DNA of 64,000 nt. It comes from Escherichia coli. GTDB taxonomy: Bacteria > Pseudomonadota > Gammaproteobacteria > Enterobacterales > Enterobacteriaceae. A program made the position numbers and the translations under genes. The notes below the pieces were generated by a model. That model was not told where the DNA came from. It saw nothing but the letters and a program-made list of their open reading frames with translations, and did not search any database. The DNA is taken from the NCBI RefSeq assembly GCF_041248615.1, contig NZ_CP158426.1; one strand, 5' to 3'. This document shows positions 23,247 to 45,100 of this stretch, in pieces. The first letter of the stretch is position 1. Each line of letters opens with the position of its first letter.

Positions 23247-23345
23247 GCCGGATGCGGCGCGAACGCCTTATCCGGCCTACAAAAGTTTGCAAATTCAATA
23301 AATTGCAGAATTCATGTAGGCCTGATAAGCGAAGCGCATCCGGCA
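23247..23345. repeat. BIME: two inverted REP (palindromic unit) elements
   Basis: GCCGGATGCGGCGCGAACGCCTTATCCGGCCTAC and inverted copy GTAGGCCTGATAAGCGAAGCGCATCCGGCA, canonical E. coli REP sequences. Confidence 0.9.
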
Positions 23346-24543: not shown

Positions 24544-25446
24544 TTATGAAAGCATAGACCGTTTACCCTCCCTGGGTACGACGGAACAGGGGTCCTGATG
24601 GATAATCACATCCGATCCCGGAAAACGCCGTAAAATAGCCTGCTCTACCTGATCCGCCACCATATGTGCCTGAACCAAAGGCAGAGAGTCTTCCATTTCC
24701 AAATGAATCTGAATAAAGCGGGTCGGCCCTGACTGCCGCGTGCGAAGATCGTGAGCGCCGCTAACACCCGGCCAGGAAGTCACGATATCAATAATTTCTT
24801 GCCGTTCTTCATCAGGCAATGCGCGATCCAGTAATGACTGTACCGCCTCATATCCCATGCGTAACGCGCTATATAAAATATAGATGCCGATTCCCAATGC
24901 AAACAGAGCATCGGCGCGATGCCAGCCGTACCAGGACAACCCCAGCGCCAGCAGAATTGCGCCGTTCATCATAACATCAGACTGGTAATGTAGCATATCA
25001 GCCCGCACCGCCTGGCTTTGCGTCCGGCGCACCACCCACCGCTGAAACGAGACAAGGATAATCGTACAAATTAGCGCCACAATTGTCACGATTACCCCGA
25101 CGCCTGGATCTGTCATCGGTGTTGGAGATATCAGATGTTGAATACCCGTCAAAAAGAGGAATAGTGCCGAACCGGAGATAAACATACTTTGCGCCAGCGC
25201 CGCGAGGGACTCAGCTTTACCGTGACCAAACGAGTGATTATCGTCGGCAGGTTGCAGGGAATATCGCACCACCAGTAAATTCGTCAACGACGCGCCGATA
25301 TCCACCAGCGAATCCACCAGCGCGGCGAGAATACTCACCGACCCGGTATACCACCATGCAAAAATTTTAATCAGCAATAGCAGTGAAGCCATCGCCGTTG
25401 CAGCAATCGCCGCCCGACTGACCAGCCGTCCATAAGATTGATTCAT
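24544..25446 (-). CDS. fieF: Cation-diffusion-facilitator metal efflux pump FieF (YiiP)
   Basis: Start at the ATG giving [49 protein letters not shown]... (300 aa). Confidence 0.94.
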
Positions 25447-25526
25447 AAATACTCCCGCTATCAACTGACGCTAGTATAACGGAAGCAAATCATCTGCAAT
25501 GCATTAAGCAGCAGGCAAATTGAGGA

Positions 25527-25590
25527 TAAAAAAACCCCCACATCATGTGGGGGAAGACAGGGATGGTGTCTATGGCAAGGAAAACAGGGT
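25527..25590 (-). ncRNA. cpxQ: CpxQ-like sRNA from the cpxP 3' UTR, including terminator hairpin
   Basis: ~65-nt 3' UTR between the cpxP stop (25594-25596) and the hairpin CCCCCACATCATGTGGGGG + T-run (25527-25552). Assigned from the K-12 precedent that CpxQ is processed from this 3' UTR; boundaries approximate. Confidence 0.5.
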
Positions 25591-25593
25591 TTA

Positions 25594-26094
25594 CTACTGG
25601 GAACGTGAGTTGCTACTACTCAATAGCTTCAACGATGAACTTTTTTGCCATTGCGTCACGTCACGCAACTGCTCCATTCGTTGTTGATGTTTCTCATTTA
25701 AAACCGCTTGCTGCTCCGGCGTTAACAGGCGATACATTTGGTTGCGGACTTTTGCCATCTCAACCTGACGAGCAATTTGCTCATTCGCCATTTTTTCTGC
25801 CTGTGCGCGCACAGCGTTTTCATCAAAATTTTCTGCGGTGACAAGGCGATGCATTGTCTCCAGTTCGCTAACATTAACAGGAGGCTGTTCGTGCCGGGCC
25901 TGTTGCATAAGATCTCGCATCTGCTGACGCTGATGTTCGGTTAAACTTATGCCGTCGAACATATGGCTCTGCGTACTGCGCTGCGTAAGTTCTTCACCCG
26001 GATGCCAGTTATCGCCTGAACCGACTTCAGCAGCGTGGCTTAATGAACTGACTGCCAGCGTTGAGGCCATGACGGCAGCGGTAACTATGCGCAT
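25594..26094 (-). CDS. cpxP: Periplasmic Cpx stress adaptor CpxP
   Basis: 166 aa, [39 protein letters not shown]... with LTxxQ motifs. Confidence 0.94.
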
Positions 26095-26173
26095 CATTTG
26101 CTCCCAAAATCTTTCTGTCGCGATTCAACGATAGAGAGTTTACGATTCAGGCTGCAAACATGCGTCAGGGGGT

Positions 26174-26188
26174 GTAAAACAACGTAAA
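26174..26188. promoter_or_regulatory. CpxR-P binding box in the divergent cpxP/cpxRA control region
   Basis: GTAAA-acaac-GTAAA, an exact match to the CpxR consensus GTAAA-N5-GTAAA, between cpxP (26094) and cpxR (26244). Confidence 0.8.
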
Positions 26189-26243
26189 GTCATGGATTAG
26201 CGACGTCTGATGACGTAATTTCTGCCTCGGAGGTATTTAAACA

Positions 26244-26942
26244 ATGAATAAAATCCTGTTAGTTGATGATGACCGAGAGCTGACTTCCCTATTAAAGGAG
26301 CTGCTCGAGATGGAAGGCTTCAACGTGATTGTTGCCCACGATGGGGAACAGGCGCTTGATCTTCTGGACGACAGCATTGATTTACTTTTGCTTGATGTAA
26401 TGATGCCGAAGAAAAATGGTATCGACACATTAAAAGCACTTCGCCAGACACACCAGACGCCTGTCATTATGTTGACGGCGCGCGGCAGTGAACTTGATCG
26501 CGTTCTCGGCCTTGAGCTGGGCGCAGATGACTATCTCCCGAAACCGTTTAATGATCGTGAGCTGGTGGCACGTATTCGCGCGATCCTGCGCCGTTCGCAC
26601 TGGAGTGAGCAACAGCAAAATAACGACAACGGTTCACCGACACTGGAAGTTGATGCCTTAGTGCTGAATCCAGGCCGTCAGGAAGCCAGCTTCGACGGGC
26701 AAACGCTGGAGTTAACCGGCACTGAGTTTACCCTGCTCTATTTGCTGGCACAGCATCTGGGTCAGGTGGTTTCCCGTGAGCATTTAAGCCAGGAAGTGCT
26801 GGGCAAACGCCTGACGCCTTTCGACCGCGCTATCGATATGCACATTTCCAACCTGCGTCGTAAACTGCCGGATCGTAAAGATGGTCACCCGTGGTTTAAA
26901 ACCTTGCGTGGTCGCGGCTATCTGATGGTTTCTGCTTCATGA
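26244..26942 (+). CDS. cpxR: Two-component response regulator CpxR (OmpR family)
   Basis: 232 aa, MNKILLVDDDRELTSLLKELLEMEGFNVIVAHDGEQALDLL... Confidence 0.96.
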   Translation: MNKILLVDDDRELTSLLKELLEMEGFNVIVAHDGEQALDLLDDSIDLLLLDVMMPKKNGIDTLKALRQTHQTPVIMLTARGSELDRVLGLELGADDYLPKPFNDRELVARIRAILRRSHWSEQQQNNDNGSPTLEVDALVLNPGRQEASFDGQTLELTGTEFTLLYLLAQHLGQVVSREHLSQEVLGKRLTPFDRAIDMHISNLRRKLPDRKDGHPWFKTLRGRGYLMVSAS

Positions 26943-28312
26943 TAGGCAGCTTAACCGCGCGCATCTTCGCCATCTTCTGGCTGACGCTGGCGCTGGTGTT
27001 GATGTTAGTTTTGATGTTACCCAAGCTCGATTCACGCCAGATGACCGAGCTTCTGGATAGCGAACAGCGTCAGGGGCTGATGATTGAGCAGCATGTTGAA
27101 GCGGAGCTGGCGAACGATCCGCCCAACGATTTAATGTGGTGGCGGCGTCTGTTCCGGGCGATTGATAAGTGGGCACCGCCAGGACAGCGTTTGTTATTGG
27201 TGACCACCGAAGGCCGCGTGATCGGCGCTGAACGCAGCGAAATGCAGATCATTCGTAACTTTATTGGTCAGGCCGATAACGCCGATCATCCGCAGAAGAA
27301 AAAGTATGGCCGCGTGGAACTGGTCGGTCCGTTCTCAGTGCGTGATGGCGAAGATAATTACCAACTTTATCTGATTCGTCCGGCCAGCAGTTCTCAATCC
27401 GATTTCATTAACTTACTGTTTGACCGCCCGCTATTACTGCTGATTGTCACCATGCTGGTCAGTACGCCGCTGCTGTTGTGGTTGGCCTGGAGTCTGGCAA
27501 AACCGGCGCGTAAGCTGAAAAACGCGGCCGATGAAGTTGCCCAGGGAAACTTACGCCAGCACCCGGAACTGGAAGCGGGGCCACAGGAATTCCTTGCCGC
27601 AGGTGCCAGTTTTAACCAGATGGTCACCGCGCTGGAGCGTATGATGACCTCTCAGCAGCGTCTGCTTTCTGATATCTCTCACGAGCTGCGCACGCCGCTG
27701 ACGCGTCTGCAACTGGGTACGGCGTTACTGCGCCGTCGTAGCGGTGAAAGCAAGGAACTGGAGCGTATTGAAACCGAAGCGCAACGTCTGGACAGCATGA
27801 TTAACGACCTGTTGGTGATGTCACGTAATCAGCAAAAAAACGCGCTGGTTAGCGAGACCATCAAAGCCAATCAGTTGTGGAGTGAAGTGCTGGATAACGC
27901 GGCGTTCGAAGCCGAGCAAATGGGCAAGTCGTTGACAGTTAACTTCCCGCCTGGGCCGTGGCCGCTGTACGGCAACCCGAACGCCCTGGAGAGTGCGCTG
28001 GAAAACATTGTTCGTAATGCCCTGCGTTATTCCCATACGAAGATTGAAGTGGGCTTTGCGGTAGATAAAGACGGTATCACCATTACGGTGGACGACGATG
28101 GTCCTGGCGTTAGCCCGGAAGATCGCGAACAGATTTTCCGTCCGTTCTATCGTACCGATGAAGCACGCGATCGTGAATCTGGCGGTACAGGTTTGGGGCT
28201 GGCAATTGTTGAAACCGCCATTCAGCAGCATCGTGGCTGGGTTAAAGCGGAAGACAGCCCGCTGGGCGGTTTACGGCTGGTGATTTGGTTGCCGCTGTAT
28301 AAGCGGAGTTAA
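26939..28312 (+). CDS. cpxA: Envelope-stress sensor histidine kinase CpxA
   Basis: 457 aa; H-box LSDISHELRTPLTRL, HAMP and ATPase motifs; ATGA overlap with cpxR. Confidence 0.96.
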   Translation: MIGSLTARIFAIFWLTLALVLMLVLMLPKLDSRQMTELLDSEQRQGLMIEQHVEAELANDPPNDLMWWRRLFRAIDKWAPPGQRLLLVTTEGRVIGAERSEMQIIRNFIGQADNADHPQKKKYGRVELVGPFSVRDGEDNYQLYLIRPASSSQSDFINLLFDRPLLLLIVTMLVSTPLLLWLAWSLAKPARKLKNAADEVAQGNLRQHPELEAGPQEFLAAGASFNQMVTALERMMTSQQRLLSDISHELRTPLTRLQLGTALLRRRSGESKELERIETEAQRLDSMINDLLVMSRNQQKNALVSETIKANQLWSEVLDNAAFEAEQMGKSLTVNFPPGPWPLYGNPNALESALENIVRNALRYSHTKIEVGFAVDKDGITITVDDDGPGVSPEDREQIFRPFYRTDEARDRESGGTGLGLAIVETAIQQHRGWVKAEDSPLGGLRLVIWLPLYKRS

Positions 28313-28319
28313 ACTCGGC

Positions 28320-28520
28320 GCAGTGCCGTCCCCTTCGGGGTGAAGGCAACAGGTCAGCACTGTGCGAACTGATACCCTCACCACGGCCCTCTCCCTGAAA
28401 GGGCGAGGGGAAAAACGTAGCCCTGTTCAGCAACGGAGCTGAGCACCGCTCCGGACAGTCCCCTCGCCCCTCTGGGGAGAGGGTTAGGGTGAGGGGAAAA
28501 ATTCAGCACAATGCAAACGG
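28320..28520. repeat. Structured GC-rich extragenic repeat region (inverted pair of ~36-bp units)
   Basis: CCCTCACCACGGCCCTCTCCCTGAAAGGGCGAGGGG (28375-28410) and its inverted partner CCCCTCGCCCCTCTGGGGAGAGGGTTAGGGTGAGGG (28461-28496), plus a CCCCTTCGGGG hairpin at 28330. Resembles E. coli extragenic repeat families; family not confirmed. Confidence 0.6.
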
Positions 28521-28566
28521 CACTGCTCTCACCGGAAACCATGCCAGATTTCGTATTAAGGCAGAC

Positions 28567-42171: not shown

Positions 42172-45100
42172 ATGCAGGTCAGCAGAAGGCAGTTCTTTAA
42201 GATCTGCGCTGGCGGTATGGCAGGCACCACGGCAGCGGCACTGGGTTTTGCACCCAGCGTAGCACTCGCGGAAACCCGGCAGTATAAACTGCTGCGCACC
42301 CGCGAAACCCGTAATACCTGCACCTATTGTTCCGTAGGCTGTGGGCTGTTGATGTACAGCCTCGGTGACGGAGCAAAAAACGCCAAAGCATCTATCTTCC
42401 ATATCGAAGGCGATCCGGATCACCCGGTCAACCGCGGTGCACTTTGTCCGAAAGGCGCTGGCCTGGTGGATTTCATCCACTCCGAAAGCCGTCTGAAGTT
42501 TCCGGAATACCGTGCGCCAGGTTCTGATAAATGGCAGCAAATCAGTTGGGAAGAGGCGTTTGATCGCATCGCCAAACTGATGAAAGAAGACCGCGATGCT
42601 AACTACATTGCGCAAAACGCCGAAGGCGTGACTGTTAACCGCTGGCTCTCCACCGGGATGCTGTGTGCTTCCGCGTCGAGTAACGAAACCGGCTATTTAA
42701 CGCAAAAATTCTCCCGCGCGCTGGGTATGCTCGCGGTCGACAACCAGGCGCGTGTCTGACACGGACCAACGGTAGCAAGTCTTGCTCCAACATTTGGTCG
42801 CGGTGCGATGACCAACCACTGGGTCGACATCAAGAACGCCAACCTCGTCGTGGTGATGGGCGGTAACGCCGCTGAAGCTCACCCGGTCGGGTTCCGCTGG
42901 GCGATGGAAGCCAAAATTCACAACGGCGCGAAGCTGATTGTGATCGATCCTCGCTTTACGCGTACGGCGGCGGTGGCTGACTACTATGCCCCTATTCGTT
43001 CCGGTACTGACATTGCTTTCCTGTCAGGCGTATTGCTGTACCTGCTGAACAATGAAAAATTCAACCGCGAATACACCGAAGCCTATACCAACGCCAGCCT
43101 TATCGTGCGTGAGGATTACGGCTTTGAAGATGGCCTGTTCACCGGCTACGACGCGGAAAAACGCAAGTACGATAAATCCTCCTGGACTTACGAACTGGAC
43201 GAAAACGGCTTCGCCAAACGCGATACCACGCTGCAACATCCGCGCTGCGTGTGGAACTTGCTGAAACAGCACGTTTCCCGCTACACGCCAGATGTGGTTG
43301 AAAACATCTGTGGTACGCCAAAAGACGCGTTCCTGAAAGTCTGCGAATACATCGCCGAAACCAGTGCTCACGATAAAACTGCCTCGTTCCTGTATGCCCT
43401 CGGCTGGACGCAACACTCTGTTGGTGCGCAAAACATTCGTACGATGGCGATGATCCAGCTGCTGCTCGGCAATATGGGGATGGCAGGCGGCGGCGTTAAC
43501 GCCCTGCGCGGTCACTCCAATATTCAGGGGCTGACGGACCTGGGGCTGCTGTCGCAGAGCCTGCCGGGTTACATGACGTTGCCGAGCGAGAAGCAGACCG
43601 ATCTGCAAACCTACCTTACAGCCAACACGCCAAAACCGCTGCTGGAAGGTCAGGTAAACTACTGGGGCAACTACCCGAAATTCTTCGTCTCCATGATGAA
43701 GGCCTTCTTTGGTGATAAAGCGACGGCGGAAAATAGCTGGGGCTTTGACTGGTTGCCGAAGTGGGATAAAGGCTACGACGTCCTGCAATACTTCGAGATG
43801 ATGAAAGAAGGCAAGGTCAATGGCTATATCTGCCAGGGCTTTAACCCTGTTGCCTCATTCCCGAACAAAAACAAAGTGATCGGTTGTCTGTCGAAACTGA
43901 AGTTCCTCGTCACCATCGACCCGCTGAACACTGAAACCTCTAACTTCTGGCAGAACCACGGTGAGCTGAACGAAGTTGACTCGTCGAAGATCCAGACCGA
44001 AGTGTTCCGTCTGCCATCGACCTGCTTCGCGGAAGAGAACGGTTCTATCGTTAACTCCGGTCGCTGGTTGCAGTGGCACTGGAAAGGTGCGGACGCCCCG
44101 GGGATTGCGCTGACTGATGGCGAGATCCTCTCCGGTATCTTCCTGCGCTTGCGCAAGATGTATGCCGAACAGGGTGGCGCGAACCCGGACCAGGTGCTGA
44201 ACATGACCTGGAACTACGCCATCCCGCATGAGCCGAAGTCGGAAGAAGTGGCGATGGAGAGCAACGGTAAGGCGCTGGCCGATATTACCGATCCGGCAAC
44301 CGGGGCGGTTATCGTCAAGAAAGGCCAACAACTTAGCTCGTTCGCCCAACTGCGCGATGACGGTACCACCTCCTGTGGCTGCTGGATTTTCGCCGGTAGC
44401 TGGACGCCAGAGGGCAACCAGATGGCACGCCGTGATAACGCCGATCCGTCTGGCCTCGGTAACACGCTGGGCTGGGCATGGGCATGGCCGCTTAACCGCC
44501 GCATTCTGTATAACCGCGCCTCCGCAGATCCGCAGGGTAACCCGTGGGATCCGAAGCGTCAGTTGCTGAAATGGGACGGCACCAAATGGACCGGCTGGGA
44601 TATTCCGGACTACAGCGCAGCACCTCCGGGCAGTGGCGTCGGGCCGTTTATCATGCAGCAGGAAGGCATGGGACGTCTGTTTGCCCTTGATAAGATGGCG
44701 GAAGGTCCGTTCCCGGAACACTACGAGCCGTTTGAAACGCCGCTGGGAACTAACCCGCTGCATCCAAACGTTATCTCGAACCCGGCTGCGCGTATCTTTA
44801 AAGACGACGCCGAAGCGTTGGGTAAAGCCGATAAGTTCCCGTATGTCGGAACCACCTATCGTCTGACCGAGCACTTCCACTACTGGACCAAACACGCGCT
44901 GTTGAACGCGATTTTGCAACCAGAGCAGTTTGTGGAAATCGGGGAGTCGCTGGCGAATAAACTTGGCATTGCCCAGGGCGATACCGTGAAAGTCTCCTCC
45001 AACCGTGGCTATATCAAAGCCAAAGCGGTGGTGACCAAACGTATTCGCACGCTGAAAGCGAACGGCAAAGATATCGATACCATCGGTATTCCGATTCACT

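Follow-up and report, generated by a model that had tools for sequence, protein, structure and literature searches.

The question raised by this locus is whether an E. coli strain other than K-12 has kept the complete set of elements that leads from the response regulator CpxR via cpxP to the small RNA CpxQ, and what else this short segment of the chromosome is used for. The window, i.e., the whole stretch of 64,000 nucleotides that was analyzed, is E. coli chromosome in reversed orientation relative to K-12. From the ORF list and the K-12 RefSeq record the gene order is pfkA, fieF, and cpxP, all on the minus strand, followed by cpxR and cpxA on the plus strand. The cpxP coding sequence of the ORF list (25594–26094, minus strand) encodes 166 amino acids and ends with a TAG stop codon at 25596–25594, which is directly followed by an in-frame TAA; a cpxP annotation lies under the match in 5,425 E. 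coli genomes. One synonymous AAT/AAC codon is the sole coding difference from the K-12 cpxP gene and the CpxP protein is identical. The same holds true at the protein level for FieF, for the regulator CpxR, which acts on the CpxR box (ORF at 26244–26942, plus strand), and for the sensor CpxA (ORF at 26939–28312, plus strand). Alignment of 779 bp against MG1655, beginning with the start codon of cpxR and ending 63 nt past CpxQ, yielded three differences in total, namely the synonymous cpxP codon, one base in the terminator loop, and one T fewer in the T run. We are thus highly confident that the locus presents the cpxP-CpxQ unit in its usual E. coli form, controlled by CpxR, whereby CpxR binding, processing, and regulation would be as described for K-12 and Salmonella in the literature. 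The cpxP-CpxQ arrangement as such is already known and well characterized, and it is present in essentially all E. coli.

The divergent cpxP/cpxRA control region spans 149 bp (26095–26243) and is bounded by the cpxP and cpxR start codons. Direct reading confirmed the claim of the first-pass annotation that a perfect GTAAA-N5-GTAAA site is located here at 26174–26188: On the plus strand the box reads GTAAA-ACAAC-GTAAA (GTAAAACAACGTAAA) with zero mismatches to the motif, which corresponds to TTTAC-N5-TTTAC on the cpxP-sense strand. The site is unique, as no second GTAAA-N5-GTAAA occurs on either strand of the 64-kb window, where 0.08 matches are expected by chance and where 8 of 100 dinucleotide-preserving shuffles gave at least one match. 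The motif agrees with that published for CpxR, GTAAA-N5-6-GTAAA, and induction of cpxP has been reported to be Cpx-dependent (PMC9600279). The complete spacer including the box is 100% identical to that of MG1655. The CpxR and CpxA proteins are also the same, no difference at all was detected to the CpxR-activated cpxP/cpxRA divergent region of K-12, and the match to the K-12 arrangement that had been proposed earlier also extends to cpxQ (b4716), which lies at the homologous place. From this identity of spacer and regulatory proteins, phosphorylated CpxR would be expected to bind at 26174–26188 and to mediate Cpx-dependent induction. A weaker, degenerate pentamer, GTCAG, was observed at 26164 on the plus strand, 10 bp from the CpxR box and in phase with it, so that 26164–26188 comprises three pentamers with 10-bp spacing; the same arrangement is found in K-12. 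A sigma-70 consensus scan of positions 25300–26400 revealed no promoter-like site at its threshold, which is compatible with an activator-dependent promoter, yet is no evidence for one. By eye, TAAACT (26142–26137) and TATCGT (26133–26128) can be proposed as candidate cpxP promoter hexamers.

At the other end of the gene, the cpxP 3′ UTR comprises the 66 nt that follow the stop codon up to and including the last U of the U run (25528–25593, minus strand), in line with the length of about 65 nt that had been estimated. The range of 25527–25596 given for it in the first reading located the UTR correctly, but it reaches one base beyond the U run and includes the stop codon, both of which are trivial offsets. 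Within this UTR, a 57-nt CpxQ sequence (UUUUCCUUGCCAUAGACACCAUCCCUGUCUUCCCCCACAUGAUGUGGGGGUUUUUUU) was assigned to 25528–25584 (minus strand) by its position and its sequence match to the K-12 ncRNA cpxQ. It starts on the coding strand 9 nt past the cpxP TAG stop codon, just as in the RefSeq annotation of MG1655, where cpxQ is listed with 58 nt at 4106330–4106387, 9 nt after the cpxP stop. Both the minimum-energy and the centroid fold predict an internal stem-loop in CpxQ (25555–25571, minus strand) with a 5-bp stem, AGACA/UGUCU, and a 7-nt loop. It is followed by a rho-independent terminator hairpin (25535–25553, minus strand), which was found by a terminator scan as well as by folding and alignment. 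The hairpin CCCCCACA-UGA-UGUGGGGG has 8 pairs, of which 6 are G-C, and a 3-nt loop, and it is continued by 7 U, so that the strong terminator hairpin announced for the end of the UTR is indeed present. The U tail (25528–25534, minus strand; by alignment 7 U here and 8 U in K-12) is the expected Hfq-binding 3′ end. For Hfq-dependent sRNAs, a tail of about 6–7 U or more suffices for Hfq action.

The comparison with CpxQ of K-12 and Salmonella yielded agreement in the host gene, the strand, the distance to the stop codon, the two predicted hairpins, and the RNase E cleavage-site context CCCUG/UUUU, which is unchanged relative to K-12; 56 of the 57 aligned bases are identical. The alignment with K-12 CpxQ that had been proposed as a check of the first reading showed that the first 40 nt, i.e., the 5′ end including the seed, are exactly alike and that there is no substantial divergence of the UTR, and the reading was thereby upheld. 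The difference is confined to the 3′ part, where K-12 has a UGC loop and 8 U, whereas the window has a UGA loop (A instead of C at position 25543) and 7 U. In spite of this, the predicted fold of the 5-bp internal stem-loop and the 8-bp terminator is the same for both RNAs, as is the energy of −17.4 kcal/mol. Every sequence element that is needed for the published CpxR-cpxP-CpxQ pathway is present and unchanged in this strain, and judging from these elements the steps of the pathway should take place and CpxQ should actually be produced.

The expected course of events would be as follows. Under envelope stress CpxA would become active and CpxR would be phosphorylated. Phosphorylated CpxR would then occupy its GTAAA-N5-GTAAA box between the two divergent genes and activate cpxP and, according to published work, also cpxRA. 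The monocistronic cpxP mRNA would terminate at the hairpin and the U tract (25553–25528), and RNase E together with Hfq would cut about 9 nt past the stop codon, giving rise to the 57-nt CpxQ with a 5′ monophosphate. The 5′ region of CpxQ could pair with nhaB, skp, cfa, and other mRNAs, resulting in less synthesis of membrane-stressing proteins. This scheme follows the published data, in which cpxP is described as the most strongly Cpx-induced promoter, whose 3′ UTR gives CpxQ, a repressor of skp (PMC4817254). CpxQ is cut from the cpxP mRNA by RNase E with Hfq in Salmonella and E. coli, and nhaB, skp, agp, ydjN, and fimA are among its repressed targets (PMC9438474). The 5′ end of CpxQ has been given as the seed (PMC6755755), and natural CpxQ is a highly stable RNA with a 5′ monophosphate (PMC10250213).

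The conservation of CpxQ was analyzed with the pattern CCTTGCCA-N5-10-ATCCCTGTCT, using one genome per species, which yielded at least 120 loci. Among the matches listed, about 104 species belong to the Enterobacterales (105 loci analyzed), and the rest are evident chance matches with other spacings. The genera in this list include Escherichia, Citrobacter, Enterobacter, Klebsiella, Pantoea, Erwinia, Serratia, Yersinia, and Dickeya, as well as Pectobacterium, Hafnia, Edwardsiella, Proteus, Providencia, Morganella, Photorhabdus, and Xenorhabdus. The 5′ 30 nt of CpxQ (UUUUCCUUGCCAUAGACACCAUCCCUGUCU), which form the conserved seed region, are the same in K-12, in the window, and in 100 of the 105 Enterobacterales loci among the matches listed, whereby 18 of the 30 positions are fixed by the pattern and 12 are free, so that the invariance is partly forced and divergent orthologues would have been missed. 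The hairpins behave differently: Folded one by one, the 63 distinct orthologous RNAs among the listed matches have 31 different 5′ stem arms, and all of them form hairpins of 5–9 bp with loops of 3–6 nt. In an RNAalifold analysis of 19 orthologues of equal length the terminator was not captured and 0 compensatory pairs were found, with the hairpins being out of register. The sequence of the internal stem-loop does not vary in the compared species and covariation therefore gives no test of it. A seed that is invariant, next to a terminator that co-varies freely, fits the published finding that CpxQ is more conserved than the cpxP coding region (PMC9438474).

It might be argued that the 3′ UTR of this strain functions as a terminator only, since the changed loop and the short U tail could prevent the accumulation of a stable, functional CpxQ. 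In order to judge how unusual these two features are, queries of 96–97 nt covering CpxQ and its downstream flank were compared with 5,426 complete E. coli genomes. The resulting allele counts are approximate values, as the place that scores best in a lysogen may be its attR copy. Loop A together with 8 T was found in 3,737 E. coli records at ≥99%, the K-12 form with loop C and 8 T in 1,053 records, and the form of the window with loop A and 7 T in 60 records (83 with a query ending at the phage attachment core described below), i.e., in about 1% of the genomes. Thus, K-12 has the minority loop allele and its CpxQ sequence is not the typical one for E. coli, whereas the 7-T tail of the window is rare. 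The rarity of the tail is the point that would favor a mere terminator, and a tail of 7 U might in principle slightly weaken termination or Hfq binding. It could also mark a lineage or stem from a sequencing error in the homopolymer. The loop base, in turn, argues against the loss of CpxQ, as loop A is the majority state in E. coli and probably also the ancestral one; the loop-A, 8-T form is the commonest orthologue sequence as well (22 of the 105 loci among the matches listed). Regarding the tail, the listed orthologues from about 104 species have 6 U in one case, 7 U in 9, 8 U in 87, and 9 U in 8 cases, so that with 9 of 105 loci a 7-U tail is within the natural range. Together with the fold and energy, which equal those of K-12, and the unchanged seed and cleavage context, this makes a UTR that serves as terminator only highly improbable.

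A part of CpxQ has a second role. In some genomes, the E. coli matches stop precisely where the U tail of CpxQ ends. Strain AR_0150 has a P2-like prophage that abuts the CpxQ end at this point; it contains integrase, repressor-like, and Cox genes, and its integrase gene begins about 150 nt past the core that is common to phage and host. A circular 32-kb P2-like element contains CACCATCCCTGTCTTCCCCCACATGATGTGGGGGTTTTTTTTATC adjoining its integrase. The core was found with 46 nt in phage WPhi (AY135739, 22552–22597) between ogr and int, and it is also present in about 60 other phage records, most of them at 100%, including L-413C, fiAA91-ss, R18C, and several Salmonella and Yersinia phages. In the window, 44 nt (25568–25525, minus strand) match a 45-nt core of WPhi (Peduovirus Wphi) except for one T in the T run, and they comprise CpxQ nt 17–57, i.e., the 3′ 41 nt of the RNA, plus 3 nt downstream. 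In comparison with the WPhi attP, the site of the window is the empty bacterial attB site, as the fieF start follows CpxQ at 81 nt, exactly as in K-12. A WPhi attB that has a core of 47 nt and lies at 88.6 min on the K-12 map has reportedly been described by the Haggård-Ljungquist laboratory. It is well supported that, across Enterobacterales, the attachment core of WPhi-type P2-like phages overlaps the 3′ two-thirds of CpxQ.

The CpxQ junction is uninterrupted in 4,591 of the 5,425 complete E. coli genomes; in the remaining 834 it is interrupted, which means that about 15% of the complete E. coli genomes are occupied. Among the matches listed in the orthologue scan, a gene for a P2-type integrase (51–84% identity) lies 137–285 nt downstream of the CpxQ motif in 12 other Enterobacterales species. 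An O157:H7 strain has also been listed with a prophage of 31 kb that lies between cpxP and fieF (PMC7609406), although a literature search for CpxQ or cpxP in connection with prophage integration or a P2-like attB found no paper that makes this link. Since the core consists of CpxQ nt 17–57 and the 3 following nucleotides, integration rebuilds a complete CpxQ at attL. WPhi-type phages therefore each carry, directly downstream of ogr, a 45-nt CpxQ fragment that comprises the region of the internal stem-loop along with the terminator and the Hfq tail. Whether this fragment has a function is a matter of pure speculation: it would be surprising, but conceivable, if the phage-borne or attR copy were expressed and, as a CpxQ-like RNA, competed for Hfq or for the targets of CpxQ, or if lysogeny altered CpxQ termination or led to read-through into the prophage. 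A highly conserved sRNA on which P2-like phages land illustrates a known theme neatly. As the phage core has an A in the terminator loop, loop A was also considered as a scar of phage excision, but this was rejected, since A is the E. coli majority state and the commonest base in other species.

One could turn the argument around and assume that the segment is conserved as a phage attachment site and not as an sRNA. The core of 44–46 nt common to WPhi-type phages, its occupation in E. coli, and the P2-type integrases beside the site in the 12 other species mentioned above would be in accordance with such an assumption. Yet the first 16 nt of CpxQ, which are located upstream of the core and contain the 5′ seed, are equally invariant, and in most species the site is free of prophages. 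Moreover, the regulatory function of CpxQ has been shown experimentally (PMC4817254, PMC9438474, PMC6755755, PMC10250213). More plausibly, the phages exploit a sequence that was already conserved, and we regard conservation on account of the phages as extremely improbable.

E. coli CpxQ as an RNA of the cpxP strand is not captured by the family models of Rfam 15. Rfam 15 at gathering thresholds assigned no family to the CpxQ site of the window. With permissive thresholds, the site gave a reverse-strand match to Hrs1 (Erwinia amylovora Hfq-regulated sRNA 1, RF02628) and chance-level terminator look-alikes (such as RyhB and Esr41, E about 1) only. The RF02628 match covers 25528–25599 on the plus strand, antisense to cpxP, with 42.4 bits compared to a gathering score of 56.4. 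That the plus strand is the source of the real RNA, which would then be antisense to the 3′ UTR of cpxP, as this subthreshold match with its orientation would have it, is hardly conceivable, since an element in that direction opens with an A run that precedes the hairpin and thus has no terminator, since RF02628 also matches the strand opposite cpxP in Erwinia persicina (locus L041, 5697–5771, plus strand; 82.7 bits), and since Erwinia hrs1 has been described between cpxP and fieF, co-oriented with both, as Hfq-dependent and with a rho-independent terminator (PMC4070566). The RF02628 consensus itself starts with an A run and then a hairpin, which is the terminator in reverse. Plus-strand matches, a reversed terminator in the consensus, and the co-orientation of hrs1 with cpxP together indicate that RF02628 represents the reverse complement of the real RNA. 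Hrs1 shares the cpxP-fieF locus and the same conserved core with CpxQ and differs in that its model is built on the complementary strand and tuned to Erwinia. Hrs1 is the Erwinia orthologue of CpxQ, and its publication preceded the name CpxQ by two years. As the sole relevant model is on the wrong strand, CpxQ escapes detection by Rfam.

The gap in the family models is accompanied by one in the genome annotations. In the PGAP-annotated E. coli RefSeq genomes listed, the cpxP CDS alone lies under the match, without a cpxQ ncRNA, whereas the curated K-12 record has cpxQ. CpxQ is thus under-annotated in most RefSeq E. coli genomes. The locus itself is of small discovery value and its use lies in an annotation check.

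Some further observations were made elsewhere in the window. The spacer between cpxA and yiiM (28313–28566, 254 bp) is rich in palindromic repeats of high GC content, e.g., CCCTCTCCC...GGGCGAGGGG. Only 160 of 5,426 genomes have it in full length, in 60 of them at ≥99%, a number equal to the count of the 7-T CpxQ allele, and pieces of it occur with a median of 4 copies per genome. The spacer thus resembles a small palindromic repeat element whose insertion varies between strains. Just past the 3′ end of pfkA, Rfam detected the sRNA ES036 (CssrF) at 23282–23323 (plus strand) with 48.2 bits at a gathering score of 37.6. Also above threshold were a SECIS_3 selenocysteine insertion element (42754–42812, plus strand), a ClpQY (hslVU) promoter element (9573–9630, plus strand), and an L31 ribosomal-protein leader (4909–4961, minus strand); these three matches were taken as what is expected in such a chromosomal region.
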